Below are positions 28,402-60,411 of a DNA stretch of 64,000 bases, in pieces. The notes below the pieces were generated by a model, which did no database searches, had not been told where the DNA came from, and saw only the letters and a program-made list of their open reading frames with translations. This DNA is from an uncultured Gammaproteobacteria bacterium (GTDB lineage Bacteria > Patescibacteriota > Microgenomatia > Levybacterales > UBA12049). Positions within the stretch are counted from its first letter, which is position 1, and each line of letters starts with the position of its first letter. The position numbers and the translations under genes were made by a program. Where the stretch lies: assembly GCA_964364105.1 (NCBI GenBank), contig CAYILI010000001.1, positions 14,465-78,464 of the forward strand, read 5' to 3'.

Positions 28402-29530
28402 GTCCTACCTCCTCTAAAACCGCTAAAGTCTCCCTAGTAGATTTTTCCCAGGAAAACTTTTCTACTTGCTTCTTACCTTTTTCAATAAGCTGCTTCTTAA
28501 GATTATCATCTTCTAATAATTTTTTCATTTTTTCCGATATGTCACTTACGCTATTTGGATCTACATAAAGCGCTGCGTCTCCTCCCGCCTCAGGAAGACT
28601 TGAAACATTACTGGTTATTACTGGCGTTCCATAATTCATGGCTTCAAGAACTGGGATTCCAAATCCTTCATAAAGACTTGGAAGAATAAAAAATTCTGCG
28701 TTTTTATATAAAACTGGAAGCTCTTCGTCCGTTACATTTTCTAAAAACAAAACTTTGTCTTTTACATTATATTTTTCAGGAGCGTTAAGTATTTCCTCAT
28801 ATTTCCATCCCCGTCTTCCAACGATAATCAAACTAACGTCAGTCTCAATTTTTGAATATGCTTCAATAAGACGAGTAATATTTTTTCTTGGTTGAAGAGT
28901 CCCAACAAATAATATGTATTTTCCATTAATTCCAAACTTCTTTCCTAATTTGTCCATACTTAATACACGATACTTACTACTTGATACTTTATTGATTCCC
29001 GGGTAAATTACCTCTACTTTTTCCTCTTTTACTCCGTATTCTTTAATTATATCATTCTTACTTGACTCACTAATTGTTAAGATTTTCATAGATTTTTTTG
29101 CAGAGTAACTAGTCCATTTCTTAAGCTGAATTAAGTCTTTTTTCTTAAAAAGCTCTGGAAAATATAAGTAAGAAACGTCTAAAATTGAAACGACAGATTT
29201 CTTAGGTGCGAAGATTGGTAAATAATGAGTTGGGGTAAAAAAAACATCAAGCGATCTATCTTTTAATAAATTTAAAGATAGAGAAGTAATTGTCCACATT
29301 TTTCTAGAAGGGAGAATTCTGTATTTCCATGTGTCAGTTGCTTTAGGTAAATCATTCGTAGGGCTTTGAGGTAAAAATATTTCGTAGTTATTTTTAACAT
29401 CAATTTTTGCAAGATTTTTTAATAGCTCAAAACAATAGACACTACTCCCAACTCTATTTGGAAGATTTGTAGTTTTGTTATAACCAAATCTCGGAACTAC
29501 CGCTTCGTAACCATTAATTCCAATTTTCAC
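28394..29530 (-). CDS. Glycosyltransferase family 4. Its GTG start is supplied by the end of GIY-YIG element copy 1.
   Basis: EGFGIPVLEAMNYGTPVITSNVSSLPE. The first codon is GTG at 29528-29530, which overlaps the stop of the GIY-YIG ORF. Confidence 0.75.
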   Translation of the reverse strand: MKIGINGYEAVVPRFGYNKTTNLPNRVGSSVYCFELLKNLAKIDVKNNYEIFLPQSPTNDLPKATDTWKYRILPSRKMWTITSLSLNLLKDRSLDVFFTPTHYLPIFAPKKSVVSILDVSYLYFPELFKKKDLIQLKKWTSYSAKKSMKILTISESSKNDIIKEYGVKEEKVEVIYPGINKVSSSKYRVLSMDKLGKKFGINGKYILFVGTLQPRKNITRLIEAYSKIETDVSLIIVGRRGWKYEEILNAPEKYNVKDKVLFLENVTDEELPVLYKNAEFFILPSLYEGFGIPVLEAMNYGTPVITSNVSSLPEAGGDAALYVDPNSVSDISEKMKKLLEDDNLKKQLIEKGKKQVEKFSWEKSTRETLAVLEEVGRG

Positions 29531-29784
29531 CCTGTTAAATAAGATTTAAGTCTATTTCTTAAAAACATCTTTCCATGATATGTTTTAAGATATTTTTCTC
29601 TATGAGTGGCATCTTGCTGATTTAGACAAGCTTCATAGTAAATGAGCTTAAACTTCCCCCTTTCTTTAGTGGATGCAACTTGTTTATTTTCATGCTGCTT
29701 AAATCTTAATTTTAAATCCTTGGTATAACCAGTATAAAACATTTTATCTTTGTCGGATCTAAGAATATAAATGTAGTAAAACAT
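29527..29784 (-). CDS. Stand-alone GIY-YIG nuclease (85 aa), copy 1
   Basis: MFYYIYILRSDKDKMFYTGYTKDLKLRFKQHENKQ contains the GIY-x(10)-YIG core. The C-terminal YLTG is encoded by the TIR. The ORF-track 126-aa version adds an unlikely N-extension. Confidence 0.8.
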   Translation of the reverse strand: MFYYIYILRSDKDKMFYTGYTKDLKLRFKQHENKQVASTKERGKFKLIYYEACLNQQDATHREKYLKTYHGKMFLRNRLKSYLTG

Positions 29785-29811
29785 TCTGGATTTAAAATTA
29801 TTTAACAGGGT
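29529..29811 (-). mobile_element. Miniature TIR element copy 1 (283 bp) encoding a GIY-YIG nuclease
   Basis: Perfect 14-bp terminal inverted repeats: ACCCTGTTAAATAA at 29529-29542 and TTATTTAACAGGGT at 29798-29811. A second copy lies 1.8 kb away. Confidence 0.75.
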
Positions 29812-30346
29812 AAACTGCAGGATAAATAACTTTAACTTTAGATGCTTCAATACCCAAAATTTCTTCAATATCTTTTTTACTCGACTCAGAAATCGTAAAA
29901 ATAACATCTGACTCTTTTTTGAGCCATTTAATTTTCCTTTTTTGTGTATCTATTATTTTCCTGGCAGTTTCTTCTGGATTCTTGTAAACAATAAGGTCAT
30001 ATATAATGGTCGCCTTCTTAGCTTTTTTTGTGGGTGGCTCTGTCCAGTCAGATGTAATAAATAAATCAACCGGACCAATCAGCCATTCGATAGGTAAAAT
30101 GTGCAGCCTGTTCCAGAGTAAATCTAATAATAATGGCGGGAATTTAAATTGTTTAATTTTTACATTTTTAGGAATTGAATGAAAATTGAAAATTGAAAAT
30201 TGAAAATTTCTTCTCATTGATGAGAAGAATAGAATATATTCATTTTTTTTGTCTTCTTTAAGTAAATTTTCAACTAAATTTATCAGGTAGTTTGATACAC
30301 CAGTTTTTGAATAGACAACCTGACTAACATCAATTCCAATTCTCAT
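29798..30346 (-). pseudogene. N-terminal half of a GT4 glycosyltransferase, truncated after ...KVKVIYPAV by a stop inside the TIR of GIY-YIG element copy 1
   Basis: MRIGIDVSQVVYSKTGVSNYLINL is a typical GT4 start. The reading frame ends YPVK-TAA inside the TIR at 29798-29812. The C-terminal catalytic domain is absent. Contains a (GAAAATT)x4 repeat. Confidence 0.6.
30181..30208. repeat. Heptanucleotide microsatellite (GAAAATT)x4 inside the truncated GT4 fragment
   Basis: Read directly: gaaaattgaaaattgaaaattgaaaatt, preceded by a degenerate unit. Confidence 0.9.
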
Positions 30347-31119
30347 AAATTAATTCTAGCAGTATTTAGCTTTCTCGCGTCCACCCGCTCCATAAATTTT
30401 CCTTTTAGAAATTCTGGTAAATCAGAAGGATCACCGCTAAATCCTAACCTCTCTGAAAATTCTCTGCCAATTCTATCCCCAACTTCTCTTTGAATTTCAT
30501 ACAAAGACCTGCCTCCAAACTTTGGTTTATAACTATTACTAAAACCCGCATTTCTTTTAGCCCTTTCTGGATCCTCCTTATTTCCATCCCATCCTCTTTC
30601 TAAATTATCAAAACGCTCGCTAATTCTAACTGGCTTAGTATCCGAAAGCATCGCATCCACAAACCATACGATTTTTTGCTCGTCATCAATTGGCCCTGAA
30701 ACATCATCTGGAACATTTGCACCCGTGAGCTGGATCGTTGCCTCATCTATTCCTAACTCTCTTAAAAGTTGGAAATCTCTATCTCTAATATCATCAAAAG
30801 TTTGCAAACTTAGTGTTCCTGATTCTGCTGCCGCTCTTTGGGCAGTCTGTTCATGCTTTTTATACCAATCATGTAAGATTGCAGCGTGTACGACTCTTTT
30901 CCTTTTTTCTGGCAATAGGTCTAACTGTGCAGCTAAAATATCTGCAAACACACCCGCACCCAAGCAATGCGACGAAACATTTCTCCAGACCTCGGGCCTC
31001 CTACCTAGTGTTTCACCGGTTTTATGAGGCTTAAATGCACTGAGGTGAGAAGCTGCAAATTCAGCCATATATGCTACTTTCGCCCTATCTAAATTTTGCG
31101 GTTCAGTACTATTTTCCAT
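30343..31119 (-). CDS. HD-domain phosphohydrolase-like protein
   Basis: H...HD metal-binding pattern (SSHCLGAGVFADIL ... VHAAILHDWYKKH). The gene is clearly GC-richer (about 42%) than its flanks. Confidence 0.55.
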   Translation of the reverse strand: MENSTEPQNLDRAKVAYMAEFAASHLSAFKPHKTGETLGRRPEVWRNVSSHCLGAGVFADILAAQLDLLPEKRKRVVHAAILHDWYKKHEQTAQRAAAESGTLSLQTFDDIRDRDFQLLRELGIDEATIQLTGANVPDDVSGPIDDEQKIVWFVDAMLSDTKPVRISERFDNLERGWDGNKEDPERAKRNAGFSNSYKPKFGGRSLYEIQREVGDRIGREFSERLGFSGDPSDLPEFLKGKFMERVDARKLNTARINL

Positions 31120-31345
31120 GCTTAAATCTTGAATCTTTGATAATCGATAATAAAACAGCGATTACGAAAAAAACAAAAGAAAACCAAACTAAGCGCTGGG
31201 CTGTAAAAAATATCCATTGGGCAAATAAAGGAATTGAAAGAACCAAACACGAAAGCCCTGCAATCACAAAAAATTTAGGATCTCTTTTTATCAAGAGCAA
31301 AAGAAAAACAATTATAAACAATAAATCCTGTGGTTTAAAATCCAT
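31109..31345 (-). CDS. Small membrane protein (78 aa, 2-3 TM)
   Basis: Hydrophobic ORF. Its ATG is 2 nt downstream of the GIY-YIG copy 2 TIR. Confidence 0.35.
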   Translation of the reverse strand: MDFKPQDLLFIIVFLLLLIKRDPKFFVIAGLSCLVLSIPLFAQWIFFTAQRLVWFSFVFFVIAVLLSIIKDSRFKHGK

Positions 31346-31603
31346 TTACCCTGTTAAATAAGATTTAAGCCTATTTCTTAAAAACATCTTTCCTAAGTAT
31401 GTTTTAAGATACTTTTCTCTATGAGTTGCATCTTGTTGGTTTAAACAAGCTTCATAGTATATAAGCTTAAATGGCCCCCTTTCTTTAGTTGATTGAACCT
31501 GCTTATTCTCATGCTGCTTAAATCTTAATTTTAAATCTTTTGTGTAGCCAGTATAAAACATTTTGTCCTTATCTGATCTTAGTACATATACGTAGTAAAA
31601 CAT
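31346..31603 (-). CDS. Stand-alone GIY-YIG nuclease (85 aa), copy 2
   Basis: MFYYVYVLRSDKDKMFYTGYTKDLKLRFKQHENKQVQSTKERGPFKLIYYEA.... Differs from copy 1 at 5 of 85 residues. Confidence 0.8.
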   Translation of the reverse strand: MFYYVYVLRSDKDKMFYTGYTKDLKLRFKQHENKQVQSTKERGPFKLIYYEACLNQQDATHREKYLKTYLGKMFLRNRLKSYLTG

Positions 31604-31629
31604 ACTAATTTAAAATTATTTAACAGGGT
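31348..31629 (-). mobile_element. Miniature TIR element copy 2 (282 bp) encoding a GIY-YIG nuclease
   Basis: The same 14-bp TIRs, at 31348-31361 and 31616-31629. About 85% nt identity to copy 1. Confidence 0.75.
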
Positions 31630-31633
31630 GAAT

Positions 31634-32560
31634 CTAGCTGGAATATTTTAATAGAATTTTAGATTCGTTTTCGCTTTTACTTGAGATATTGAGAACTAAA
31701 TCCGCGATAAGACCAGTAAGTCCGACTTGGAGCCCAGCTATGATAAGAAGCATTCCTAAAACCAGCAAAGGCCTTGTCCCAATCGCCTCACCCAAAAAAT
31801 GCAGGATTGATAGATATAAGGAAATCAAAATCCCCAAACCAAATAAGATAGCTCCTATAAATCCGAAAAAATGAAGTGGTCGCTTACCGTATTTGCTTAA
31901 AAAAATCATGGTCATCATATCAGGCATCTGCGTTAATACTTTAAGAGCTCCATATTTACTCTTACCCCAGCGTCTTTCATCATGAACGACTGCAACTTCT
32001 GTTACCCTAAATCCTTCCTGTGCTACTAAAAGCGGTATGAATCTATGCATTCCACCATATAAATTTACCGACTTTGCTGCATCACTGGTGTAAAGTTTTA
32101 GTCCGCAATTATAATCATGAAGTCTTACTCCCCAAAACATTGAAGCGACTAAGTTAAATGCTTTTGAAAATATAATCTTGGCAAAAGAATCTTTTCTTTC
32201 TTTTCTCCATCCGGAAACCATGTCATATCCTTCTTTATGTTTCTCGATCAATTTGTGGACTTCTGAAGGCTTGTCCTGAAGATCAGCATCCATTGTAACT
32301 ATCAAATCCCCCTTGGCTTTTTGGAAACCAAAAGTTAAAGCTTCTGCTTTACCATGATTTCTTCGGAAAGAGTAAACCCTAATATTTGAATCTTTCTTCT
32401 CAAGATCCCTGATCAAACTCAATGTATTATCAAATGACCCATCATCAATAAAAATTATTTCGTATTCCTTTGATAGAATTTTTGCGTGCTTTAGGAGCTC
32501 TTCATAGAAATGAAGAATACTCTCCTCCTCATTAAAAACTGGCACTACATAACTAATCAT
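31634..32560 (-). CDS. GT2 polyprenyl-phosphate glycosyltransferase (DPM1/GtrB/ArnC-like, with C-terminal TM helices)
   Basis: ISYVVPVFNEEESILHFYEELL...EIIFIDDGSFDNT and a two-helix C-terminal anchor. Confidence 0.8.
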   Translation of the reverse strand: MISYVVPVFNEEESILHFYEELLKHAKILSKEYEIIFIDDGSFDNTLSLIRDLEKKDSNIRVYSFRRNHGKAEALTFGFQKAKGDLIVTMDADLQDKPSEVHKLIEKHKEGYDMVSGWRKERKDSFAKIIFSKAFNLVASMFWGVRLHDYNCGLKLYTSDAAKSVNLYGGMHRFIPLLVAQEGFRVTEVAVVHDERRWGKSKYGALKVLTQMPDMMTMIFLSKYGKRPLHFFGFIGAILFGLGILISLYLSILHFLGEAIGTRPLLVLGMLLIIAGLQVGLTGLIADLVLNISSKSENESKILLKYSS

Positions 32561-32587
32561 GAATTGCGGAATCTAAACCTAATTTTA

Positions 32588-34630
32588 TCATTTCCTCACT
32601 CTTTTTGCTAAATTCACAATTAGAAAAAGAATAATTACTACAAAAGCTGACAGACTCACTATAATCCCTTTATTCACCCAGTCTTGAGGCTTGTAGTAGA
32701 CTTTTAGGTCATAGATACCATCTCTGGGCAGGATAAAGCTATTGATTTTATTTTTATATATAGCACTACCAATCACCACGTCCCCATCTACTGCAACCCA
32801 GCCAGGGTCATAATTTTCAGAAAAAATAACTGAATCTCCTCTCTTGCCTCCTTCAATATTAATTCTGTATTCAACAGGACTAATGTATTGATAATTTATT
32901 TTTGCATCGATATTTTCAGAACCAGTACCAGAATTAAAAATATAAAAACGACTTTTTGGTTGCTTAACCTCAAATAAAACTATTTTCCCGAATTTACTTT
33001 TTTCTTCTAAAAAACTCGATTTTCTAAGACTATTAATTGTATTTTCGTATAAAGCTATATCGGGATTACCATCATTTACAAAAATTTGGTTATTGATATC
33101 ATCTGCAACTACTATATATTTAACTGAAGAAAGATCCACTAATTCCCTATCTAAACTAACTTGGTTAACTAATTTTTTGTTGTCGTAAATTTCATACAAT
33201 GCACGAGCAGGAATAATTGGATTTGTAGGGGAATAGTAGGAATAAGGAGTAAAATTCGGAACCCAAAGAGTTCGATAATAATCTTTATCTTTAATTAGAT
33301 AGTTTGTCAACTCAACATAGTTTTTAGGAACACTCCTTGATGCAAATGTCCCTGTTAATCCTCCTGTAAACGCTTGATGAATCAATAAGCTCCAAATTAT
33401 AATAAAAATTAACATTATGATTTCTTGATTTAAAGGTTTTGACTTAATCTTTATTAGCTTTGCGAGCAGGAAAATACTATATGGTATAAGAACTGAATAA
33501 GCGATAGATATTAAGCCATACCATTTTGTAGGATCTCGAAACATCAGGAATCCAGGAATATTATTAAACATCCACAGGTATATGTTTCCGAACGGAGTCG
33601 TTGAACCCTTTGCCAAAAAAATACCCAAAATCCCAATAATTGAAAATGTTACAACGATTCTCTTTTCAAATAAATTTCTGGTGTTAAGTAAAAATAAGCC
33701 CAAAAATCCAATCAGGGGAATTATCAAAAATTCTGGACGCATAAAGTGTGTTTTGCCAAAAATATTTTCAGGCCAATTAGGATGAAGTAACGATATAGTA
33801 TTCTCCAGTCGCGCAAAGCTTAAATAATCAACCATACCTTGATTTGTATAAGATTCCCCTAAATTACTTAAAGGATTCTGTCCTATAAAAACGAATGGGA
33901 CAATCCAAAAGAAATTTAAAAACACAATTACAGTTCCAGGAATAATCAAAAAGGAAACTAGAGTTTCTCTTAAGCTTTTAAAAAAATTATTGCTCAAGAG
34001 AAAAGTAACGTAATAAATCCCTACTATAAATAATGATATATAGCCAATTCTGGGATCAATCATCAACTGGACAGAATATATAATCCCAGCGATAATTGAA
34101 ATATTTATAATCTGTTTTGAAGCTAAGTTTTTTAAAATGTTCGCAAAACTAAATAAAACTAGGGGGATTAGTGAGTATGCTACCCCAACACCTATTTGAC
34201 CACCTCCAATCGTCATCAAAATATATGTATTTGTTGTAAATATCAGAACAGATAGTACAGCAAGAACATTGTTATTTATAATTATTTTTTTAAAAAAAGC
34301 GAATGATCCAATAAGCGAGAGCAATAAAAATGGAAAATACCAAACTATTTTTTCTGAAATATTCCATTCGAATCCTGCCAGTCTTAAAAGAATTGCCGGA
34401 GCAAACTGTGCATAGGTGCTTAAGGGAAGTAAAAATGTTATATTGTTACCCATTCCATTAGAAAAGTTAGCATCCCATGCATAAAAATAAAGCGGAGAAG
34501 CAAGGATAGCTTGGGGAAATTTAAAAGTCCAATCGCCTGTAGACAAAGACTCTAATGAAAACCAATCTTTAAATATAAAAATAAAAACAATAATGACTGT
34601 GAAGAAGATTAATCTATTAATATTTAGCAT
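32588..34630 (-). CDS. Polytopic GT-C-like membrane protein (680 aa)
   Basis: About 13 TM helices plus a large C-terminal extracytoplasmic domain. Family not assignable from sequence alone. Confidence 0.4.
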   Translation of the reverse strand: MLNINRLIFFTVIIVFIFIFKDWFSLESLSTGDWTFKFPQAILASPLYFYAWDANFSNGMGNNITFLLPLSTYAQFAPAILLRLAGFEWNISEKIVWYFPFLLLSLIGSFAFFKKIIINNNVLAVLSVLIFTTNTYILMTIGGGQIGVGVAYSLIPLVLFSFANILKNLASKQIINISIIAGIIYSVQLMIDPRIGYISLFIVGIYYVTFLLSNNFFKSLRETLVSFLIIPGTVIVFLNFFWIVPFVFIGQNPLSNLGESYTNQGMVDYLSFARLENTISLLHPNWPENIFGKTHFMRPEFLIIPLIGFLGLFLLNTRNLFEKRIVVTFSIIGILGIFLAKGSTTPFGNIYLWMFNNIPGFLMFRDPTKWYGLISIAYSVLIPYSIFLLAKLIKIKSKPLNQEIIMLIFIIIWSLLIHQAFTGGLTGTFASRSVPKNYVELTNYLIKDKDYYRTLWVPNFTPYSYYSPTNPIIPARALYEIYDNKKLVNQVSLDRELVDLSSVKYIVVADDINNQIFVNDGNPDIALYENTINSLRKSSFLEEKSKFGKIVLFEVKQPKSRFYIFNSGTGSENIDAKINYQYISPVEYRINIEGGKRGDSVIFSENYDPGWVAVDGDVVIGSAIYKNKINSFILPRDGIYDLKVYYKPQDWVNKGIIVSLSAFVVIILFLIVNLAKRVRK

Positions 34631-34668
34631 AAACTTCTAATGTTATAATGTAAGAAATTTAAATCCTG

Positions 34669-36519
34669 ATGAACAAAAAAACGTTATTATTATTCTTAAT
34701 ATTTGCATTTATCTTCTCCGTTCAATTTATCTTTAATCCTAATTTTTTTGTTAACAATGATCTTAACGGAAATATTGTACCACTTCTACACTTTAAACAA
34801 TCAATATTAACCTACCATCAATTTCCTTTATGGAACACTTATATTAATCAGGGGATTCCAAGTGTCGCTGATCCACTTTATGGAATTTATAATCCCCTTG
34901 TTAGCATTCCAATACTATTATTGCCTTATGAAATTGCAATTAAAATAATGTACCTGCTCGCAATATTTTTATCCTGCATTTCAATGTACATGCTTTTAAA
35001 GCTTTACAAAGTATCAAGCTTAGTTTCTTCTATCATAGCAATTACATACGCAAGCGGAACCTACATATCCTCAAGGATTAACGCTGGACATTTAGAAAAA
35101 ATAATTTCTTTCCCACTTCTTCCACTATTACTATTTAGCTTGATAAAATTAACTCAAGAAAAAAATATTTTGTGGTCAGGAATAACTGCAATTATCCTCT
35201 CTTTAATTCTCTTTAGTGGCGATATTTATAATGCACAATATTATCTTTATTCTATAGCTAGTATATTTTTATTATTCTTATTTAAAGATAGGAAAACATC
35301 TTTATACTTGATGCTCTCAGTTATTTTGTTTTTCCTATTTTCCTCGATAAAAATTCTTCCAATGCTGCAGTTACCAGATTATATTTCAAAAATAAAAGAA
35401 CCCTTTGTTGGAGGATTAAACTTAATAAGTCTAACATATAATTTATTCCTTCCAGTAGATCCTATATTTTTAAATTTATTTTCAACAAGCGACTATTCTA
35501 CTGGTTTTGGGTGGTGGGAAAGTCTTTCGTTTATTGGTCCTTTCTCTGCGCTTGGATTACTATACATTTTAAAATCATCTTTCTCTAAAATTGATACTGA
35601 AAAGTTAATTATAATCATATTATCAATTTTATTCCTACTTCTCTCTGCTCCTGATTCCTTACTCAATCCATATCACTATCTTATTAGTAATGTAGAAACA
35701 TTAAAGTTTTTTCATGTCCCAAGTAGAATCTTAGCTTTATGGGGAATGATTATTCTATTGTTTTTCGGTATTTTCCTTGATAAATTTAAAGATAAAAAGC
35801 TTGCAATTGCTATTTTATTAATAAACTTTTTGATAGTTTTTATTTACTCGCAAAATATTTTAAGAGAAAAACAATTTGTTAAAATTGACCAGGACTACAT
35901 TGCTCCATTGAATTGGATAGCAAGCAATAATAATGATAATTATCTTACTGTTCATGAATATGATCAAGGTAAAATCCCCCAAGATAAATTGTATTTAGCT
36001 AACATTCGTCCACTACTTTCAAATTATGGTTTTATTCTAAAAAATAGTCTGAGTGAAAAGTATAATTTCAAAGGAAATAATAAATATAACGATGTAAAGC
36101 CTGGTTTTGTGATTACGGATAAGATAAAAAATGATGCTAGTCTTAAAGAAATAAAGAAATTTAATAATAAAATTTATATATATAAAGACCTGAAAGCATT
36201 ACCATATGCTAGTATAGACGGAAAGCCACAGCAAGTATTTTTTTATCCAAATAAAATTTCCGTTATAGGGGACTCTGAAGAAAATAGTCGTCTTAAATTA
36301 TTGGAAAGTACATATCCCGGCTGGACAGTATTTATAGATGATAAAGAATCAAGAATTATTAGCGGGAGATTTTTGGAAGCTGAAACCCTCAAGGGAATTC
36401 ATAAATATGAATTTATTTATTTTTCAAAACTTTTTAATCTTGGTTTATTTGTCTCTAGTATTTCTATTCTTGTATGGGTATTCTATTTGATAAGAAAAAT
36501 AAAAATTAAACCACATTAA
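34669..36519 (+). CDS. Polytopic YfhO-like GT-C membrane protein (616 aa)
   Basis: Early YHQFPLWNTYINQGIPSVADP motif resembling the YfhO-family N-terminus, with multi-TM and a C-terminal soluble domain. One of only two plus-strand genes in the window. Confidence 0.4.
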   Translation: MNKKTLLLFLIFAFIFSVQFIFNPNFFVNNDLNGNIVPLLHFKQSILTYHQFPLWNTYINQGIPSVADPLYGIYNPLVSIPILLLPYEIAIKIMYLLAIFLSCISMYMLLKLYKVSSLVSSIIAITYASGTYISSRINAGHLEKIISFPLLPLLLFSLIKLTQEKNILWSGITAIILSLILFSGDIYNAQYYLYSIASIFLLFLFKDRKTSLYLMLSVILFFLFSSIKILPMLQLPDYISKIKEPFVGGLNLISLTYNLFLPVDPIFLNLFSTSDYSTGFGWWESLSFIGPFSALGLLYILKSSFSKIDTEKLIIIILSILFLLLSAPDSLLNPYHYLISNVETLKFFHVPSRILALWGMIILLFFGIFLDKFKDKKLAIAILLINFLIVFIYSQNILREKQFVKIDQDYIAPLNWIASNNNDNYLTVHEYDQGKIPQDKLYLANIRPLLSNYGFILKNSLSEKYNFKGNNKYNDVKPGFVITDKIKNDASLKEIKKFNNKIYIYKDLKALPYASIDGKPQQVFFYPNKISVIGDSEENSRLKLLESTYPGWTVFIDDKESRIISGRFLEAETLKGIHKYEFIYFSKLFNLGLFVSSISILVWVFYLIRKIKIKPH

Positions 36520-36525
36520 TAGGAT

Positions 36526-40600: not shown

Positions 40601-40682
40601 TAACCCAAATCACTATATCAGTAAGTTATTTTTTTGTAAACCTTAAAATAGCCGCATATCAATTGAGTCTTAATACAATTTA

Positions 40683-40712: not shown

Positions 40713-40728
40713 TAACAACATATAAAAT

Positions 40729-48788: not shown

Positions 48789-48870
48789 TTCGGATTACTT
48801 GGTATAATTTAGCATATTTATTTGAAACTTTAAAGTGTTTCCAAATTTAATTCATGTTCAATAGAACTAA

Positions 48871-49734: not shown

Positions 49735-49737
49735 CCC

Positions 49738-51802: not shown

Positions 51803-51814
51803 TAAATACGATAC

Positions 51815-52570: not shown

Positions 52571-53417
52571 ATTTATTCTGAATATAATTTAAGATCATTC
52601 CACAGAATCCTGCGAAGTATTCAATAATACGCATTACTATAAAACAAATGGCAACTACTGGCTCCCTAGCGAACAACCTCCAATTTCTTATATAGGAGGC
52701 TTTAATCGGATTATAACTTGAAATCCATGACTTTGGTCTTTTGTTGAAATAATTTACCATTTCTTTTCCGTACATAAAACGCTTCTTGAATAACTTTACA
52801 ATCGACAGATTACCTTCATTATGCATAACAATACTTTTTGCTCTCCCAATGCTATAGTTTTTTTCCTTTAATTTTTGAGACAAATCAATATCATCTCCAC
52901 CTGCCCCTAAAGATAAATCAAATCCGCCTATACTAAACCAGACACTTTTTTTAAAAAAACGCGGACTCTCAACAGTATCATCTCCCCAATAACAGCGCCT
53001 CTCTAATTGTTTTGCCTTAGCCCAAATCCCCACCCCGAATGAATCCTCTCGCAAAATAACAGAATCTACTCCCTTCTCACATATACCTACAGCTTCCTTA
53101 ATAAGATTCTTGGACAACTCCATATCAGCATCTAACCAGTAGACAAATTCTCCTTTTGCCTTTTTCATCCCAAAATTTCTCTTATGAGGCGCATCAAAAA
53201 TACCACTCTTAACCCTTGGTACGTATGTATAAAATTCACACTTATATTTTTCAGCTAACTCCTTAACATTATCTGTAGATTTTCCATCAATTATAAGTAT
53301 TTCTATATTGGGATATGACTGAGATCTAATATGCCTCAGGCAGCTATCGAGAAATGCAGCTGAATTTCTGGTTGGAATTATTATGGAAACTAGTTTGTGA
53401 TTATCGCTTGTTTTCAT
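52557..53417 (-). CDS. Glycosyltransferase family 2
   Basis: VSIIIPTRNSAAFLDSCLRHIRSQSYPNIEILIIDGKSTDN. Confidence 0.8.
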   Translation of the reverse strand: MKTSDNHKLVSIIIPTRNSAAFLDSCLRHIRSQSYPNIEILIIDGKSTDNVKELAEKYKCEFYTYVPRVKSGIFDAPHKRNFGMKKAKGEFVYWLDADMELSKNLIKEAVGICEKGVDSVILREDSFGVGIWAKAKQLERRCYWGDDTVESPRFFKKSVWFSIGGFDLSLGAGGDDIDLSQKLKEKNYSIGRAKSIVMHNEGNLSIVKLFKKRFMYGKEMVNYFNKRPKSWISSYNPIKASYIRNWRLFAREPVVAICFIVMRIIEYFAGFCGMILNYIQNKYEKK

Positions 53418-53512
53418 TTATTTAGTATGGACAATATTATTGCATAAAAAGCTTTTTCCTAAAAGAATTAATTCAACACTTTTAAAATAACTCATATAGT
53501 CTTTACTAAATG

Positions 53513-54769
53513 TCATGACAGTATACGAATTATCTTATTAATTTCTCTCTTAGTTAACTCAGGATTGTTTCCAACGTAGAACCCTTGATCATGCGCGATT
53601 CCTGAATTCTTATTATTAAGATGCGTTTTAATATATTTCCTAAAGAAAGGTTGTCTTGTTAAATCACCACCCACGATTGGCCTAGTTTCAATTACGCTTT
53701 CACATTTTCCCAATAACTCATCTCTTATCTTGCTTGACTTACAAATTATAGGAATAGCAAAATTAGATACAAAATCTATGTGATCATATTTAAGTGGAAA
53801 ATAATTTTTATTGTTATAAATAGCTTTCGCAATGGTTAGGAAATTACAATTTCTTTTTTTATTAATCTCATCAATATATTTTATTCCGATATTACCCACG
53901 AAACCATTTATCTCAGTTGGCCTTAAATTGAATCCTAAATCATAAAATGTGTATCTTGAGTAAAAAGTTGAATTAACTTTAAATTTTTTCCTAATCTGAT
54001 CTTGTTTTGCAAAATTAAGATTTCTATCCCATCCATGCGCTCTAACCATAGAAAGCATATTCATTAGCTCTTCGTCATCAGTGCTGATAACTCCCCCTTC
54101 AATTGTTGAAAGGTGATGCCCAACATAAAAAGAGCATGTACTTGCTAAACCAAAATTACCGAGTTTTCTACCTTTATAAACTGTCCCTAAAGATTCACAA
54201 TTATCTTCAATAAGTATTATTTTGTTTTTTTTGCAAATCTTTTGAATATTTTCCAAATCACTACAAAACCCTAGCGCATTTGTAACAAACAGTGCTTTTA
54301 ACTTTTTTTTATTAATTATTGCGCCAAGCTTTTGACTCGAAATGTTTAGTGTCTCAATTTCAATATCAATAGGGACGGGGTTTAAACCTAGCTGGATTAA
54401 TGGCATAACATTTGTACTCCAAGATAGAGCAGAAAATCCCACACTATCTCCTTTTCTTAGTCTTTTTAAATTTAAAAGGGATTGAATCAGTGCTAAATTT
54501 GCGGAACTTCCACTATTTACAAATACACAATACTTTCGCTCTTGATATTTTGCAAAATTTTTTTCAAACTTCTCACACTCAACTCCAAAGCTTAATTTTT
54601 TTGATCTTTTTATGAATTTTTGCAGATCATTTTTTACATTCTCTTCCCTATAGAATGTCGACTTAATTAACGGAATCATATAATTTTCTAAACCTAAAGA
54701 AACTATATCGAATTCATGGCAGAAGTGAACCTGATATTGCCTTACTATTCTTAATCTATATATTAACAC
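53513..54769 (-). CDS. DegT/DnrJ/EryC1/StrS-family PLP/PMP enzyme with His in the Schiff-base Lys position. Likely a sugar 3-dehydratase (ColD/E1-like). The real start is probably the MIPLIKS Met near 54679.
   Basis: The motif SFYVGHHLSTIEGG aligns to the family consensus SFHxxKxxxxGEGG. H replaces K at the PLP-binding position, which is the known hallmark of ColD-type and E1-type 3-dehydratases. Confidence 0.65.
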   Translation of the reverse strand: MLIYRLRIVRQYQVHFCHEFDIVSLGLENYMIPLIKSTFYREENVKNDLQKFIKRSKKLSFGVECEKFEKNFAKYQERKYCVFVNSGSSANLALIQSLLNLKRLRKGDSVGFSALSWSTNVMPLIQLGLNPVPIDIEIETLNISSQKLGAIINKKKLKALFVTNALGFCSDLENIQKICKKNKIILIEDNCESLGTVYKGRKLGNFGLASTCSFYVGHHLSTIEGGVISTDDEELMNMLSMVRAHGWDRNLNFAKQDQIRKKFKVNSTFYSRYTFYDLGFNLRPTEINGFVGNIGIKYIDEINKKRNCNFLTIAKAIYNNKNYFPLKYDHIDFVSNFAIPIICKSSKIRDELLGKCESVIETRPIVGGDLTRQPFFRKYIKTHLNNKNSGIAHDQGFYVGNNPELTKREINKIIRILS

Positions 54770-54827
54770 AAGAAATTAATTTTTACAGAGCAGCTTTACA
54801 ATTTAGTTTGTTATCAAGTTTTGAATC

Positions 54828-55940
54828 TTAGATTAACGCAAATTCTAAAAATTTACCTGCAGTATTAGACCATGTATGTTTCTTTCTTTCACTTACTGCG
54901 CCCTTCTGTAATTTAGCGTAAAAATTATCATCCTGTAAAATTTTTTGTATATTATCTGAAAGACTTTCAGGACTATTTTCTTGACAAATTATTCCATTAA
55001 CATTATCCTTTACGATGTCTCTAAGACCTGGAACGTTATAAACTACCGCTGGGGTCCCCCTAGCTCCTGCCTCATGCACAGTTAACCCCCACCCCTCCTT
55101 AACTGATGGAGCAATAAGAATATGCGCTCTAGTTAATAATTCTTCCTTCTTTTCTTCGGTAACATAATCAAAAAACTTAATATTTTCACTAAGATCTAAA
55201 TCTTTGACAAGTTTCTGAAGCTCAATTACAAACTCACCCTCTCCCCGGCCAATTATCCATAGTTTAATATCTGGAATAATTTTCTTGATAATTTCTACTG
55301 CTTTAATTGCGTCAATTACTCCTTTTGTTTTAGAAAGACGTGACACAAAAATTAATGTTTTTTCTTTTTCTTTTTTTGGAAGATTACTTACTATTTTTGA
55401 ATTTGAACCCATAGGAATTACTTTTACTTGTGAGTTTGAAAAACCGTTCTTTTCGATTTCTTTTTTTGAAGATTCTGAAATAGTTATTATTGGAATATTT
55501 TTATATAAATTTGGATATATTTTTTCAATTATTTTTCCAAATATATTAAATGGAAAACCTACTGCAATATTCCAAAGGTCACCAGCAATTTCGCAAATTA
55601 AAGCAACCTTTTTTTCCTTAACATAAAGGGTTGTAAAAAAAGGTATTCCATGCACTTCATCAATTACTAAGTCAACTTTTCCTTGAAAATTCTTTTTATA
55701 TAATCTGTATGCAGCAAAATGAACTGATTTAAATAGTCTTCTCGCATCCGGATCTCCAGACCTAATTATTCTAACTCCATCTATAATTTCTTCATTTCTT
55801 GAACCTTTAAAATGAGCGCTGATTTGAGTTACAACGTGTCCTTTTTTAACAAATCCTGATGCTAATTCCTGAGTCAGTATTTCTGCGCCCCCAGATGAAG
55901 GGTTTTTAATATCTCTCCAATTTAAAATTAATATTTTCAT
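54828..55940 (-). CDS. Glycosyltransferase family 4
   Basis: MKILILNWRDIKNPSSGGAEI... start and EGWGLTVHEAGARGTPAVV. Confidence 0.8.
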   Translation of the reverse strand: MKILILNWRDIKNPSSGGAEILTQELASGFVKKGHVVTQISAHFKGSRNEEIIDGVRIIRSGDPDARRLFKSVHFAAYRLYKKNFQGKVDLVIDEVHGIPFFTTLYVKEKKVALICEIAGDLWNIAVGFPFNIFGKIIEKIYPNLYKNIPIITISESSKKEIEKNGFSNSQVKVIPMGSNSKIVSNLPKKEKEKTLIFVSRLSKTKGVIDAIKAVEIIKKIIPDIKLWIIGRGEGEFVIELQKLVKDLDLSENIKFFDYVTEEKKEELLTRAHILIAPSVKEGWGLTVHEAGARGTPAVVYNVPGLRDIVKDNVNGIICQENSPESLSDNIQKILQDDNFYAKLQKGAVSERKKHTWSNTAGKFLEFALI

Positions 55941-57271
55941 AAATCTCTATAAAGAATAACAGCCAGAAAACTTAATGAAAAAATTCCAATTAAAAATAAA
56001 TAGTTGAGAGAAAATATTTGTTTTTTAAATTTAATGTTTGGAAAAAATAATGGTAAAAGAGTTAAGCTAGACAGAATTAAAAATCCTCTAAAAGCAGCAA
56101 ATGAAAATCCAAACATATTAGTCCACGTAAGTTCCAGGAGCGAAAGACTTAAAAATAAAATAAATAAGAATGTAAGAAGTATATTTTTATTAAAGTATTC
56201 CCTTATAAAAATTGCTAAAGAAATTGCCAGAAACGGATAAAATGGATATCTATACCAACCATGTCCCGGCTCGTTTGGAATAGCAAAAATGAATACTCCA
56301 AGGTAAGCAAATAATCCCAAAATAATAACAAAATTTTTTTTAAAATCTTTAGCTAAAAGAAGAAAGAAAGATATCCATCCGAAATATATCCACCCGTCAA
56401 TCATGTGCCTATCGACTAAGAAAGGCTCTTTAAAAAGCGCGTATACACTATTAAATGTCAGATCATATCTTTCTATCTGAAGCTTCCATAAACTCACGAA
56501 CAAATCCCAATCATAATAATATCCGTAAGCAATATATCCTAGGAAAAAAGCCAAAACTATTCCAAAAACAGCAATCGACTCTTTATATTTTTTAGAATAA
56601 ACTAAAATAGAAATTACAGCTACGCTTGCAGCGATCCAAGGAACTTTAGAAATAATAAGAAGACCACACAAAAGGGAAACTATTACAATATAAATTCTTT
56701 TCTTATTCTTTATATATTTTATCGTAAATAAAAGCGCAGTTAAGAATCCCGGAATGAAAAAATTCTCGTTCTGAACGATCCTGGATCCAATCGCAACAGT
56801 TGGAATAATCGCATAAATAAAACTTGCAAGAAGAGCGGTTTGTTTATCATAAATTTCTTTTACCAGAAAAAATAAAACTCCTATTGATATTACACCAAGA
56901 AGAATTGCAAGCGGACGAATCCTTCCAACATCAACATCATACATATCATCTACCCCATTTAAAAGAGCAAATGAACCTGCTACGATTCCAAAAAATGGTG
57001 GATGCTCTAGATATGGTTTTACAATCCAGAAAGCTGCACCTTTATAAATTAGATGTTCTCTTTCAGAATCTATATACTGCGGATGCGAAGACCAGGACTT
57101 AGGAGTCCCCTCCTGAATCAGATTTATTCCAAGCCATGTCCAGGCAAACTCATCCATGGTAGCACCAAAACGGGGCGTTATCGAATAATTATGAACTCGT
57201 AAAACTAGCCCTATCAATAAAATTGATGCAAGAATAATAATTGTTTTTCTTTTTAAAATTTCAGTCACCAT
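55937..57271 (-). CDS. Polytopic GT-C-type membrane glycosyltransferase (ArnT/PMT-like, 444 aa)
   Basis: About 12 TM helices. The first extracytoplasmic loop is rich in D/E and aromatic residues. Confidence 0.45.
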   Translation of the reverse strand: MVTEILKRKTIIILASILLIGLVLRVHNYSITPRFGATMDEFAWTWLGINLIQEGTPKSWSSHPQYIDSEREHLIYKGAAFWIVKPYLEHPPFFGIVAGSFALLNGVDDMYDVDVGRIRPLAILLGVISIGVLFFLVKEIYDKQTALLASFIYAIIPTVAIGSRIVQNENFFIPGFLTALLFTIKYIKNKKRIYIVIVSLLCGLLIISKVPWIAASVAVISILVYSKKYKESIAVFGIVLAFFLGYIAYGYYYDWDLFVSLWKLQIERYDLTFNSVYALFKEPFLVDRHMIDGWIYFGWISFFLLLAKDFKKNFVIILGLFAYLGVFIFAIPNEPGHGWYRYPFYPFLAISLAIFIREYFNKNILLTFLFILFLSLSLLELTWTNMFGFSFAAFRGFLILSSLTLLPLFFPNIKFKKQIFSLNYLFLIGIFSLSFLAVILYRDL

Positions 57272-58002
57272 TATTTATAATAATTTAGAAATCTTAATCT
57301 ATAAAATACCGCTAATGTATCGACAAGCGTCAAAAAGGATATTTTCCAGAAGTTAGTACTAGTTACACTTCCTTGTTTAAAAGTTAATTTTATAGGAGCC
57401 TCTATTATTTTCGTATAACCTAACATCCTTGCTACAGCAAGAACTTCAACATCGAACGCAAACGCTTTAACAATTATTTTTGGGAATACTTCCTTCGCTG
57501 TTTTTCTTCTAAAGAATTTAAGCCCAACCTGAGTATCTCTAACACTAAGCCTGAAAAGTAGCTTAATAAGACTTCTATATCCCCAGGATAATATTTTTCT
57601 ACTTAACGGATACTGAATAATAGAGTCCGGATGAAGCTTACTTCCTATGACTATATCTGCCTTATTCCATTCCATCATATTTAACATGAGCGATATTTCT
57701 GAAGGACTTAGATCCATACCAGCATCTATAAATCCGATTACGTCTCCCTTTGCCTTTTCCACACCAAGCTTTATCGCAAATCCTTTACCTTTATTTAATT
57801 CGTAGCCGAGAGGAATAACCTTACTGTTTTTAATGTGCTTTAATTTTTCAAATGTTTGATCTAAAAATCCATCAACAACAACTATTATTTCATACTCAGA
57901 TGTTATCGAACTCAATGCTAAATTAAGACTTTTTACATCCTCTGTTATTGTTTTTTCCTGTTTGTAAGCAGGAACTATTAAAGAAATAAAATTAGCAGAC
58001 AT
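57271..58002 (-). CDS. GT2 glycosyltransferase (polyprenyl-phosphate sugar synthase-like)
   Basis: ISLIVPAYKQEKTI...YEIIVVVDGFLDQT. Confidence 0.8.
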   Translation of the reverse strand: MSANFISLIVPAYKQEKTITEDVKSLNLALSSITSEYEIIVVVDGFLDQTFEKLKHIKNSKVIPLGYELNKGKGFAIKLGVEKAKGDVIGFIDAGMDLSPSEISLMLNMMEWNKADIVIGSKLHPDSIIQYPLSRKILSWGYRSLIKLLFRLSVRDTQVGLKFFRRKTAKEVFPKIIVKAFAFDVEVLAVARMLGYTKIIEAPIKLTFKQGSVTSTNFWKISFLTLVDTLAVFYRLRFLNYYK

Positions 58003-58007
58003 AAACG

Positions 58008-58277
58008 TTATTTAAGGCTAAATTTGAACTCATTTATTTTTAAATAATACAGTACTAAAGAAATCATTAGCAATACCGACGAGAAAATTGAAACATAGAT
58101 AATCTGACTGAAAGTTGAGTGGAAAATCCACATTAAAATTATCTGAACAAACGCAAATAAAAGCGTGATTAAAAATACTTTTGTTTTTTTAATAGAGAGA
58201 AAAAAGCTGATGAACACATTATTAACGCTATAGATTGTAAGAAATATTCCGAAGAGTCCTAGATATGGGGCAATCAT
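58008..58277 (-). CDS. C-terminal 2-3 TM segment that probably belongs to the upstream Wzx-like flippase (split ORF)
   Basis: The 89-aa hydrophobic ORF starts at ATG 58275-58277, which shares nt 58277 with the TAA stop (58277-58279) of the flippase ORF in a TAATG junction. Confidence 0.4.
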   Translation of the reverse strand: MIAPYLGLFGIFLTIYSVNNVFISFFLSIKKTKVFLITLLFAFVQIILMWIFHSTFSQIIYVSIFSSVLLMISLVLYYLKINEFKFSLK

Positions 58278-59368
58278 TAAGTAATCCCCTCTCCTAAAAA
58301 CAGTGAAACGGTAAAGTTGGAAAACAGGAAGTAAAAACCTGTCATAAAAATTGATGGTACAAGAACAAGAGCAAGGGCAATATAAAAAAGATTGTTATAG
58401 TTTTCTTTATTTGTATGGCGCTTAACAATTAATGGAAACATAGCAATTGGAATTGGTCCAGTAAAATAGAAAATTACTTTTCCAATTAAAGAAAGTCCTC
58501 CGTAAAATCCTGCATCATGTGAATTAAAGAAATGTTTAACAATTAAAACATCCGTTGAAATAAAGGATGATAAAGAAAAGATTGCGATCGACGTAGGAAC
58601 TGCATATAGAGCTATGTCTGACCTACCTATATTTACTTTTTTACTTGCTCCACGAATTACCTTTCTTAGAACCACCAAACTGATCATAAACCCTATTATT
58701 GAAGAGATAATAACAGCGCCTAATGCTCCAAAAACCTTAAATCCTAAAACTATAAAAAGTACGCCAAATGCAAGCTTTCCTATTCCCCCCAACAGATAAA
58801 GGATGCCTAAAAGTTTAAATCTTAACATACTTTGAACAAATGCCATATTTAAAGTCGCAATGTAAAAAATTGCTATTGAAAATCCAACCATAATAACTAG
58901 TCCAATCTCATCAATTCTTAAGAATGACATAATTAGCCCAGACACTAAAACAATCCCAATATTAAGAACTGCACTGAAGATCAGTATGTATTTAAATGCT
59001 TTAATGTAAAATGCTCCAGCTCTTTCATTTTCATTTTTAGAGAAAAATTGCGCCGCGTATCTAACGATTACTGATGACAACGAACTTGCAGGAATTGTTA
59101 CGAGAGTTATTAAAGACATTAGGCTCGCAAATGTTCCGTAGTCTGAATAGCTTAAGCTTCTTGCAAAATAAACATTTAGGATAAATGCAAGAAAACTTGA
59201 TGCAGTAGTTCCAATAAGCACAAAAAAACTCCCAGAAATTAAATCATGCTTTATGCTTCTTCTTATTATTTTTTTTATTTTATCCATTACTTGTTTCAGA
59301 AATCTTTTTGTATACTTCATAAGTTTCCATTGCTGTTTTTTCCCATGTGAATTTTTTAGCATTTTCAA
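58277..59368 (-). CDS. Wzx-like polysaccharide flippase (MOP superfamily). Appears truncated at about 10 TM and continues in the next ORF. The real start is probably the internal Met (MDKIKK) near 59287.
   Basis: The SGSFFVLIGTTASSFLAFILNVYFARSLSYSDYGTFASLMSLI pattern is typical of Wzx/PST-family N-termini. Confidence 0.55.
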   Translation of the reverse strand: MKMLKNSHGKKQQWKLMKYTKRFLKQVMDKIKKIIRRSIKHDLISGSFFVLIGTTASSFLAFILNVYFARSLSYSDYGTFASLMSLITLVTIPASSLSSVIVRYAAQFFSKNENERAGAFYIKAFKYILIFSAVLNIGIVLVSGLIMSFLRIDEIGLVIMVGFSIAIFYIATLNMAFVQSMLRFKLLGILYLLGGIGKLAFGVLFIVLGFKVFGALGAVIISSIIGFMISLVVLRKVIRGASKKVNIGRSDIALYAVPTSIAIFSLSSFISTDVLIVKHFFNSHDAGFYGGLSLIGKVIFYFTGPIPIAMFPLIVKRHTNKENYNNLFYIALALVLVPSIFMTGFYFLFSNFTVSLFLGEGIT

Positions 59369-60347
59369 ATCCCATCTTAATTAGCTTATCTCGTAGATCA
59401 TGGTCTTCAAGAACTTTTTCAATTCCATCTTTAATTGAGTCGATGCTAAGCGGATCAACATAATAAGCCGCTTTCCCCGCTACTTCTGGGAGTGAACCTG
59501 ATTTCGAAGTAATAACTGGACAACCTGACTGCATTGCTTCGAGAATTGGCAGCCCAAACCCTTCATACAGAGACGGCATACAAAGAGCTATGGCTGCATT
59601 ATAAAGTCCTACAAGATCTTCATTTTCAACAAATCCCAGTGAAATAATATTTTTGTTTCTAGCGGCTAATTCTTGAGATTTCTTAAGGTCTTTATTCCAT
59701 AAATTACTTTTGTCATAATCCTCATTTTCAAAAGCTTGTCCCACAATTACAAGCGGATAACTAGTCCGATTTACTGCCTCAATTAACCTTGGGAGATTTT
59801 TATTTGATGTAACATCGCCTACATAAAGCGCAAACTTCTGTGGAAGATTAAATTTCCTTATAATCTCCCGCTTTTTTTCATCTGAAACTGGTCTAAAATG
59901 CTTTCCTGCTGCGAGATATATCACTTTTATCTTAGATTCATTATAATTTGTGACCTTAACAATATCTTTCTTCGAGGACTCTGAGTCGGTAATAATAAAA
60001 TCTGAATTTTTAAGAATTTGTTTTTGAATTTGCCACTTCACTTCGCCTTTTAATCCTGATGGAAAATCATCCCTAAAAACTATTGGAGTTAAATCGTGAA
60101 CTGTAATTATTGTTTTAACAGGCTTTCTTAAAGAAAGTGTTAAAAAAAATGGTTCAAAATATGGATAATGAATTAGATCAATTTTCTTATCTAATTTATC
60201 CCCTCTTTTTGTGAAGACAAACTCATCTTCACCATATTTGTCCAGAAGAGCCTCTTTTAGGTTATTTAGATAAAATCCTGTTCCTCTTACTCTATGCTGA
60301 AGAAAATGACCTGATGTAATAGGAGATATATCAATTGCTACCTTCAT
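59280..60347 (-). CDS. Glycosyltransferase family 4
   Basis: [15 protein letters not shown]...[27 protein letters not shown]. The ATG is supplied by the J3 element. Confidence 0.75.
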
Positions 60348-60411
60348 CCCGTTAGAAAAGCCTCCTTCTGTGATATTTCAAATTTGGAATATATTATTTT
60401 TCTAATAGGAC
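60346..60411 (-). repeat. Intercistronic inverted-repeat element J3 (a diverged copy of J1)
   Basis: mRNA sense: TGAGTCCTATTAGAAAAA-(loop)-GAAGGAGGCTTTTCTAACGGGATGAAGGTAG. The 3' 35 nt are nearly identical to J1. The 5' arm differs at 3 positions, 2 of which keep pairing as G-U. Confidence 0.55.

Follow-up and report, generated by a model that had tools for sequence, protein, structure and literature searches.

A probable minimal mobile element with a single GIY-YIG nuclease gene, and nuclease-less hairpins of a sister lineage, in a gene cluster of an uncultured groundwater bacterium

The window analyzed here is a stretch of 64,000 nucleotides from an uncultured bacterium of a groundwater habitat (contig CAYILI010000001.1, positions 14,465 to 78,464), and all positions given below without a locus number are window coordinates. 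It contains two units in which a GIY-YIG nuclease gene lies between terminal inverted repeats (TIRs), called G1 and G2, and three shorter hairpin units that lack a nuclease gene, called J1 to J3; L and P numbers denote the loci to which these units were compared. We consider it probable that G1 and G2 are copies of a minimal site-specific mobile element whose one gene encodes the nuclease, and that J1 to J3 are nuclease-less hairpins of a sister lineage. Presence and absence at orthologous sites was seen for both kinds of unit in relatives that carry empty sites, and comparison of the empty with the filled G2 site revealed that the ends of the inserted segment are exactly the TIRs.

The initial annotation had described one GIY-YIG element in this region. 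The element is indeed there, but not as a single copy: ACCCTGTTAAATAA is present four times in the window and forms two inverted pairs, so that the window holds two GIY-YIG units, with the following features.

29529 to 29811, minus strand: element G1, 283 bp, with perfect 14-nt TIRs at 29529-29542 and 29798-29811
29527 to 29784, minus strand: G1 nuclease open reading frame (ORF), 85 aa, Pfam PF01541 (E=1e-15)
29812 to 29815, read on the minus strand: left target half-site of G1, GTTT, with its partner GAAA at 29525-29528
31348 to 31629, minus strand: element G2, 282 bp, with perfect 14-nt TIRs at 31348-31361 and 31616-31629
31346 to 31603, minus strand: G2 nuclease ORF, 85 aa, Pfam PF01541 (E=1.2e-15); AlphaFold2 (AF2) model with pLDDT 85 and a GIY-YIG fold
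31630 to 31633, read on the minus strand: left target half-site of G2, ATTC, with its partner AAAT at 31344-31347

An alignment of G1 with G2 extends from TIR to TIR, and similarity is lost just beyond. The sole ORF in each element encodes the GIY-YIG domain protein (Pfam) and includes the right TIR, which is read as TCT TAT TTA ACA GGG (SYLTG) and provides the conserved C-terminus YLTG. The nuclease ORF lacks a stop codon of its own, since the last T of the element joins the AA or GA of the asymmetric target. In G1 the stop codon is TGA (final T plus target GA), and the GTG within GGGTGA is the start of the downstream GT4 gene. In G2 it is TAA (final T plus target AA), and GGGTAA is followed by the ATG of the next gene. 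The initial annotation had stated that both kinds of element begin at or next to the preceding stop codon and end at the start codon of the following gene. The latter applies to G1, G2 and all three J units; the former is correct for the J units and had to be revised for the G elements, since the ORF upstream of G1 runs into the left TIR and terminates at its last TAA, and the stop upstream of G2 lies 4 nt ahead of the TIR.

Close relatives of the gene cluster were found via homologues of two window proteins. At the G2 site, L249 reads CCAGCTAGATTC directly followed by AAATGGATTTTAAACC, whereas the window has CCAGCTAGATTC, then the 282 bp from ACCCTG to CAGGGT, and then AAATGGATTTTAAACC. Apart from scattered substitutions in the flanks, the difference is exactly the TIR-bounded 282 bp without any duplication, and G2 is placed precisely between ATTC and AAAT. 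The G1 site is empty in L245, L246, L247 and L250 (GCAATATGAAAATAGG), where a plain ATGA overlap joins a 177-aa stand-alone GT4 N-domain gene to the next GT4 gene. We therefore rejected a reading of G1 as disruption or truncation of a GT4 gene, since these relatives have the same 177-aa stand-alone gene, which ends in the ATGA overlap. In the lineage of L005 and L006, G elements are found at other junctions of the syntenic cluster. A different insert of 110 nt occupies the G1 junction in L248 and L249 (5891-6000); it is bounded by ATGA...ATGA, has neither a J nor a G TIR, starts with a small GACCCT...AGGGTC hairpin and contains AGGAG.

From the window and the fetched loci we collected 77 distinct G-type sites, all selected by a filter that demanded a matching left arm. 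In 77 of these 77 filtered sites the gene has one TIR arm on each side, as half-sites and not as whole hairpins. The 14-nt arms pair near-completely according to Watson-Crick rules, and at four stem positions both arms have changed with full compensation. Since TIR variants stay paired, the constraint on DNA pairing is no weaker than that on the protein. Elements of the P0057 kind have the TIR ATCCTG...CAGGAT; an 86-aa GIY-YIG subfamily has ACCCCGTTAGAT...ATCTAACGGGGT and keeps YLTG via synonymous codons; and in L239, a relative on a viral contig, a compensating TIR change turns the C-terminal Leu into Pro. The viral contigs searched contained no J-type elements and a single, distant GIY-YIG relative.

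The flanks of 66 sites yielded the consensus A54 T64 T65 Y to the left and R A66 A66 T36 to the right of the element. The bases at Y and R are anticorrelated (C/A 30 and T/G 29 versus T/A 8 and C/G 2; p=8e-10). They belong to the pre-existing target, because the empty G2 site already has them, and the same observation rejects a mispair at the foot of a single-stranded DNA (ssDNA) hairpin as the cause of the anticorrelation. The G target is hence the asymmetric 8-mer ATTY^RAAT (ATTC^AAAT, on the other strand ATTT^GAAT), in which the element is found in either orientation. No target duplication was detected, as the longest direct repeats over the 77 sites are no better than in shuffled pairings; repeats of at least 7 nt occur at 5 sites versus 1 expected, with three of them in the contigs of one lineage and one being a homopolymer run. 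At 45 of 66 sites a long ORF starts between -4 and +37 nt from the right end. Seven perfect target 8-mers in the window are unoccupied. Depletion of the 8-mer was considered and rejected: dinucleotide shuffles gave 15, yet an order-3 Markov model expects 10.1 and a maximal-order model 7.6, so that the count of 7 is not significantly low.

Three further observations concern GIY-YIG units at other loci. At Bacteroidota-like loci of diversity-generating retroelements (DGRs; L015-L024, e.g. L020 1688-2300 and L019 438-960), which comprise an Lcl_C target gene, bAvd and a reverse transcriptase, Avd is broken into pieces of 71 aa and 47 aa by a G-type element and a second time by a miniature element of 50 nt with the G TIR. 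A second, 86-aa GIY-YIG element lies just upstream, and in the variant contigs L017, L019 and L024 the segment between two right TIRs is deleted. When L009 and L013 are compared with L005 and L006, the upstream flank of one G copy is joined to the downstream flank of another. L035 (minus strand, ~2517-2832 in reversed coordinates) has a different, longer GIY-YIG ORF, on either side of which stands a copy of the 5' part of a tRNA-like sequence (GCGGGTATGGTTTAGTGGCAGAA...); GIY-YIG units of a further kind may thus insert at tRNA genes.

The 85-aa protein is single-domain and comprises the catalytic domain only, with PF01541 covering residues 3-71. Its AF2 model (pLDDT 85) shows a beta-beta-alpha-beta-alpha fold with a long C-terminal helix and resembles UPF0213 BH0048, the structure-selective nuclease Slx1, the catalytic domain of I-TevI, and UvrC. 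The best PDB match is UPF0213 1zg2 (E=2.6e-8), and none of the NCBIfam models matched the protein above cut-off. We retrieved 5027 homologues; the best 120 of the 5027 are 75-95% identical and come from across the phyla of the Candidate Phyla Radiation (CPR), with Levy-, Davies-, Falkow- and Staskawiczbacteria among the sources. Many homologues are located on short contigs, as is expected for repeats.

The J units are shorter. J1 and J2 lie outside the part of the window that the initial annotation had covered.

17322 to 17401, minus strand: J1, 80 nt, with perfect 14-nt TIRs (ATCCCGTTAGAAAA), ATGA on both sides and an internal GGAGG that immediately precedes the right TIR
22234 to 22299, minus strand: J2, 66 nt, with two mismatches per arm compared to ATCCCGTTAGAAAA
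60346 to 60411, minus strand: J3, 66 nt, with the right TIR intact and the left arm decayed (GTCCTATTAGAAAA); contains GGAGG

All three units have ATGA, then ATCCCG...CGGG, then ATGA again; the gene before the unit terminates at the left TGA, and the gene after it begins at the right ATG. Downstream of J2, the GT4 gene truly starts with the ATG at 22235-22233, within GGGATG. When folded as ssDNA and compared to shuffled sequence, J1 (z -5.2) and J2 (z -4.3) form strong hairpins, and J3 folds no better than shuffled sequence (z +0.4). The genes after J1 (17321-17312) and after J3 (60345-60336) have identical first 10 nt, ATGAAGGTAG, where relatives with an empty J1 site have ATGAAAGTAG; this common start could be due to flank co-conversion or chance.

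The J2 site is cleanly empty in L240 (CCCATGAAAATATTAATTG) and also empty in L241 and L005. In the window it reads TCCATGA, then ATCCCG...CGGGATGA, then AAATATTAATTG, which amounts to 66 nt inserted where stop and start overlap in ATGA. Compared to the close relative L240 there are only few additional substitutions in the flanks, and the adjacent protein is 94% identical. The insertion can be decomposed in five equivalent ways; at one extreme 4 nt are duplicated, at the other a symmetric element is surrounded by a duplication of the 2 nt GA. The ATGA flanking the J units could be a duplication of 2-4 nt or sequence borne by the element. At the J1 junction four states were found: an empty site with the ATGA overlap in L241-L244, the 80-nt J1 of the window, a J-type element of ~120 nt with J1-like ends and an unrelated interior in L240 (9885-10000), and a full G-type GIY-YIG element in L005. 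The difference between L240 and the window implies repeated independent insertion or replacement of the interior.

To describe the J type in other genomes, we searched a single genome of each species for the right end of J followed by GAA. At least 118 stretches were recovered, and the figures that follow refer to the 123 matches listed. Matches with a left arm within 201 nt were counted as J-type elements, which applied to 80 of the 123. Their sizes cluster at 28-54, 62-83 and chiefly 101-113 nt; about 19 nt of the TIR are conserved, and the interiors are unrelated and hypervariable. We rejected a reading of the J units as genes for small peptides (MNPVRK...FLTG), because the lengths, including the 101-113-nt class, show no 3-nt periodicity. 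A likeness to attC sites was also rejected: in J, GTTAGAA comes first (5') and TTCTAAC last (3'), the reverse of the attC order with R'' (RYYYAAC) 5' and R' (GTTRRRY) 3'.

About 62 of the 118 listed stretches are from CPR bacteria and the others from Omnitrophota, Thermodesulfobacteriota, Planctomycetota and more, with three to six J-type copies in several genomes. ATGA stands directly left of 53 of the 80 elements. The terminal ATG starts an ORF of at least 60 codons in 66 of the 80, compared to 31% of all ATGAA in the same loci. Only 15 elements also end a long upstream ORF, and hence the habit of the J type is to lie at a start codon and not necessarily at a stop/start overlap. The G-type and J-type copies elsewhere thereby agree with the preference of both kinds for start-codon junctions that had been described for the window. 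In many elements of the 101-113-nt class a small hairpin with a loop of GTCG or GTC is retained ~25 nt ahead of the right TIR (TTTAGTCGCAAGG and GGTTTGTCGAACC are examples). Nested and tandem miniature elements were seen in L083 (~2460-2760), L200 (G right end) and L183, with examples such as ...CTAACGGGATGAATCCCATTAGAAAA..., where two elements share ATGA, and GGGTGA directly followed by ACCCAGTTAAATAA, where two G-type elements abut.

How are the two kinds related? Their TIRs match at 10 of 14 positions, as the initial annotation had correctly noted; the TIR strings are present as it gave them. Three of the four differences are transitions, and for one fixed alignment at this base composition the chance probability of such a match is ~1e-3. 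The similarity holds across the 77 G-type and the 80 listed J-type copies. TIRs on GIY-YIG elements form a continuum that includes ACCCTG..AAAT (G type), ATCCTG (P0057), ACCCCGTTAGAT (86-aa subfamily) and ATCCCGTTAGAGAT (L131), and each of the three transition differences between J and G was found with its compensating partner on some GIY-YIG element. L131, from Omnitrophota, has J-like TIRs (ATCCCGTTAGAGAT...ATCTCTAACGGGAT) around a frameshifted GIY-YIG gene, and L191 has a miniature element with ACCCCGTTAGAAAA. At least nine miniature elements of 33-64 nt combine the exact G-type TIR with G-type target flanks; they come from contigs that were chosen only for G-type nucleases. The right J arm, CTA ACG GGA TGA, reads LTG-stop in the frame of the nuclease. 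Intermediate-length deletion forms were sought, and one was found in L128 (Kerfeldbacteria), a 201-nt unit with J TIRs whose frame fits positions 2-55 of the GIY-YIG profile and continues with FLTG and a stop. It is an internally deleted GIY-YIG remnant.

These sequence comparisons support that GIY-YIG elements with A[CT]CC[CT]GTTA[AG]A TIRs have nuclease-less hairpin derivatives with the same TIR. Miniature inverted-repeat transposable elements (MITEs) are short and non-coding and have TIRs that match those of a protein-bearing element. The miniature elements with the G TIR show this match exactly, and the J type shows it via L131 and L128, not via the G copies of the window. In the initial annotation the J elements were suggested to be MITEs of a GIY-YIG-bearing parent, with which they would form an autonomous/non-autonomous pair. 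For the family this idea is borne out, since intermediates, L128 and miniature elements with the G TIR exist elsewhere. It fails for the window's own copies: the G elements are not the parents of J1 to J3, because their TIRs differ at 4 of 14 positions, the interiors are unrelated and the junctions differ. G elements lie in ATTY^RAAT without duplication, J elements at an ATGA^A start or stop/start junction with ATGA on both sides. By these comparisons the J copies of the window are a sister lineage of the same family and not offspring of G1 or G2.

For the way in which such elements might move we propose the following. The GIY-YIG protein would be the mobilizing enzyme. It would recognize the two TIR arms when paired together, as hairpin or cruciform, in analogy to the Ssn (cd10448) proteins, single-domain GIY-YIG enzymes that cleave ssDNA site-specifically at a position adjoining the cognate hairpin repeat (Chenal et al., 2025, Nat Commun; PMC11893778). 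We infer this paired-arm recognition because compensated changes in arms that are 250 bp apart are hard to explain otherwise. The nuclease would cut at the junctions of element and target, and repair or ligation by the host would finish the reaction. Miniature elements would be moved in trans by a nuclease with a matching TIR; the J copies of the window most likely belong to a J-cognate nuclease, as its dependents or relics, and not to the resident G nuclease. With either kind of unit the preceding gene gains a stop codon and the following gene an ATG or GTG, and therefore insertions in operons can survive.

More tentatively, and with slightly less than even confidence, we suggest that an 85-aa stand-alone GIY-YIG nuclease related to Slx1, UPF0213 and Ssn is the sole protein of a true class of mobile elements. 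Such elements would have 14-bp TIRs, insert into ATTY^RAAT without duplication, have their ORF completed by the target, be accompanied by a swarm of hairpin MITEs across CPR bacteria and other phyla, and move via cleavage of the TIR hairpin or junction and host repair. Compared with TIR-type insertion sequences (ISs), the G type lacks a target duplication and a transposase of a known class (DDE, HUH, serine, tyrosine). To our knowledge, no established IS family encodes a GIY-YIG enzyme and nothing else. If the suggestion is true, the chemistry of transposition would lie outside these four classes, and the elements would be a minimal kind of mobile DNA that was previously only hinted at in the literature. 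Whether, and how, a bare GIY-YIG domain can drive transposition becomes directly testable.

Several points weigh against the interpretation of the G and J units as related mobile elements. GIY-YIG enzymes are hydrolytic, and we know of none with strand-transfer chemistry, so that a complete transposition pathway cannot be written. The link of the nuclease to the TIRs and the target is drawn from sequence comparisons. The difference between the G and J junctions argues against one enzyme with one mode of action. The genome scan with its at least 118 stretches contained no intact GIY-YIG gene with the exact J TIR, a metagenome scan for a nuclease with J TIRs returned only close G-type relatives, and the J-like nuclease copy in L131 is a frameshifted pseudogene. 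A GIY-YIG gene of any kind is present in 3 of the 118 listed 8-kb loci around J-type miniature elements, which is, on the other hand, expected for dispersed non-autonomous copies. Finally, the joined flanks in L009 and L013 may be true recombinants between 283-bp repeats or chimeras of metagenome assembly.

Three other explanations were considered. The one that survives best, although we regard it as unlikely, is that the G units are ordinary free-standing GIY-YIG homing genes which spread by double-strand-break repair, and that the J units are unrelated hairpins whose TIR likeness is coincidental or convergent. Insertion of G does interrupt a specific target without duplication, the protein is a member of the GIY-YIG superfamily with a model like the catalytic domain of I-TevI, and the G and J junctions are of unlike types. 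However, the 77 distinct, non-allelic contexts share 8 bp only, much too little homology for classical homing, and the 85-aa protein has no DNA-binding domain. The TIRs, which homing does not need, are the best-conserved, covarying part of the element. Moreover, there are miniature elements that bear the identical G TIR, J-type TIRs are present both on GIY-YIG genes and on a remnant left by deletion, and G and J are found at one junction in related genomes.

A domesticated Ssn-like system is slightly less likely still. Here the nuclease would restrict ssDNA, incoming or replicating, at dispersed cognate hairpins and thereby modulate recombination or transformation, as proposed for Neisseria, and the host would both spread and keep the repeats. 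The architecture of Ssn and its NTS repeat is indeed matched by a repeat-flanked single-domain GIY-YIG gene with dispersed hairpins (PMC11893778), and the protein sequence is very highly conserved. Yet the copy number is apparently low (5 in 64 kb), the consensus of the NTS-type repeats (SRM) does not fit, and the elements behave selfishly in splitting a DGR Avd gene and in undergoing TIR-to-TIR deletions.

Least probable of all is that the J hairpins are immobile host regulatory elements kept for a function in translational coupling, processing or stability of mRNA: their position exactly at start codons, the GGAGG 12 nt before the ATG in J1 and J3, the strong hairpins of J1 and J2 and the orientation of all J units in the transcribed direction of a long operon would fit, but they are present or absent between relatives with a 94%-identical adjacent protein and flanks few substitutions apart, one site holds two elements with unrelated interiors, the interior is hypervariable and the lengths are not divisible by 3, many phyla share the same TIR and single genomes hold several copies of it, nested and tandem copies exist in L083, and neither the window nor J1 has an Rfam match. 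Secondary exaptation of J hairpins by the host may occur.

The surrounding window is gene-dense with low GC content (26-39%), and nearly all genes are on the minus strand. By exact protein matches it derives from groundwater metagenomes of Hainich well H52 (0.1 um fraction). It includes a long glycosyltransferase cluster, a gene for a penicillin-binding protein (PBP) and DUF4012, and its nearest named relatives are Patescibacteria, including Roizmanbacteria and Levybacteria. A tRNA and Rfam search of the window revealed neither tRNA genes nor Rfam families, and the Rfam search at J1 gave no match. The lowest GC content (26-29%) is found between 34000 and 45000, where several ORFs of 616-783 aa have no Pfam match and two plus-strand genes lie inside the otherwise minus-strand cluster. 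Mechanical ORF calls push gene starts into the elements (21060-22265, 29527-29907): the gene after J2 was called with 401 aa compared to its true ~391 aa, and G1 is overlain by a 126-aa ORF call. Such over-extension of starts is a likely source of mis-annotation in genomes of this kind. Mobile elements of the G and J type would account for a recurrent annotation artefact in CPR genomes, namely starts extended into hairpins, "split" small genes and contig breaks at 283-bp repeats. They also show how selfish DNA can live in packed operons, by bringing a stop and a start codon for its neighbors.

Several known systems resemble these elements in part. Neisseria Correia and Rickettsia palindromic elements are short TIR hairpin repeats that share the transcripts of host genes and in some cases give expression signals or extend into ORFs; their parent enzymes are unknown or of DDE type. 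Here, in contrast, insertion takes place at a start codon (ATGA^A), and the TIRs match those of GIY-YIG elements. Homing genes of the T4 Seg and I-TevI kind share the GIY-YIG domain, the intergenic location near gene starts and the split site without duplication. These homing enzymes, however, have long DNA-binding domains and spread between alleles via flanking homology, and the genes have neither TIRs nor miniature derivatives, whereas we found an 85-aa catalytic domain only, a conserved target of 8 bp and 77 unrelated contexts. REP/RAYT systems (REPtrons) and IS200/IS605 likewise combine a small nuclease gene with inverted, hairpin-forming flanking repeats and many nuclease-less copies, and the G type is similar to them in its short specific target and the absence of target duplication. 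They differ in that their enzymes are HUH Y1 transposases with covalent intermediates, compared to a hydrolytic GIY-YIG domain here, and in that the present elements have no subterminal hairpins but a single stem formed from both ends. In rRNA genes of CPR bacteria, Tsurumaki et al. (2024; PMC11270868) also described GIY-YIG ORFs, inside insertions that are not introns of either group I or group II. In this respect the insertions resemble the G elements; they were not analyzed for TIRs, targets or miniature elements. The TIR strings had no match in the literature searched.

The closest likeness by architecture is to Ssn and NTS, and the proposal in the initial annotation that the element is so far uncharacterized is therefore only partly right, since Ssn nucleases with flanking hairpins and an IS-like layout are published. 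Chenal et al. found Ssn repeats on either side of the gene and, in hundreds of copies, dispersed elsewhere, and they pointed out the IS-like layout; mobility, ends and targets were not shown there, and CPR bacteria were not mentioned (PMC11893778). Both systems have a single-domain GIY-YIG protein of ~90 aa with a cognate inverted repeat on both sides, the repeat is dispersed as short hairpins, and it co-varies with the nuclease from lineage to lineage. At the foot, GTCATTCCCG of NTS and TTCATCCCG of J show a resemblance only. A plasmid tblastn search for a bridge to proteobacterial Ssn genes gave four weak hits only. The differences are several. The gene is flanked here by half-sites, with one TIR arm on each side, and not by whole hairpins. 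The SRM consensus HGTCWYN(0-2)YYVSBRHN(0-5)WNVSBRGN(0-2)RNCYNB does not describe the repeat, which has no GTC foot; the element ends are TTCA/TTTA in the G type and TGAA/TTCA in the J type. The loops of the miniature elements measure 0-80 nt versus 0-5 nt, and the hosts are CPR bacteria and other uncultured phyla. Beyond the work on Ssn, the present comparison adds exact ends, an 8-bp target, empty and filled sites, deletion intermediates and matching miniature elements. Insertion polymorphism with exact boundaries and a target site is seen here, whereas mobility was not shown for Ssn, and these data are the first sequence-level evidence that nuclease-plus-hairpin units of the Ssn type move.

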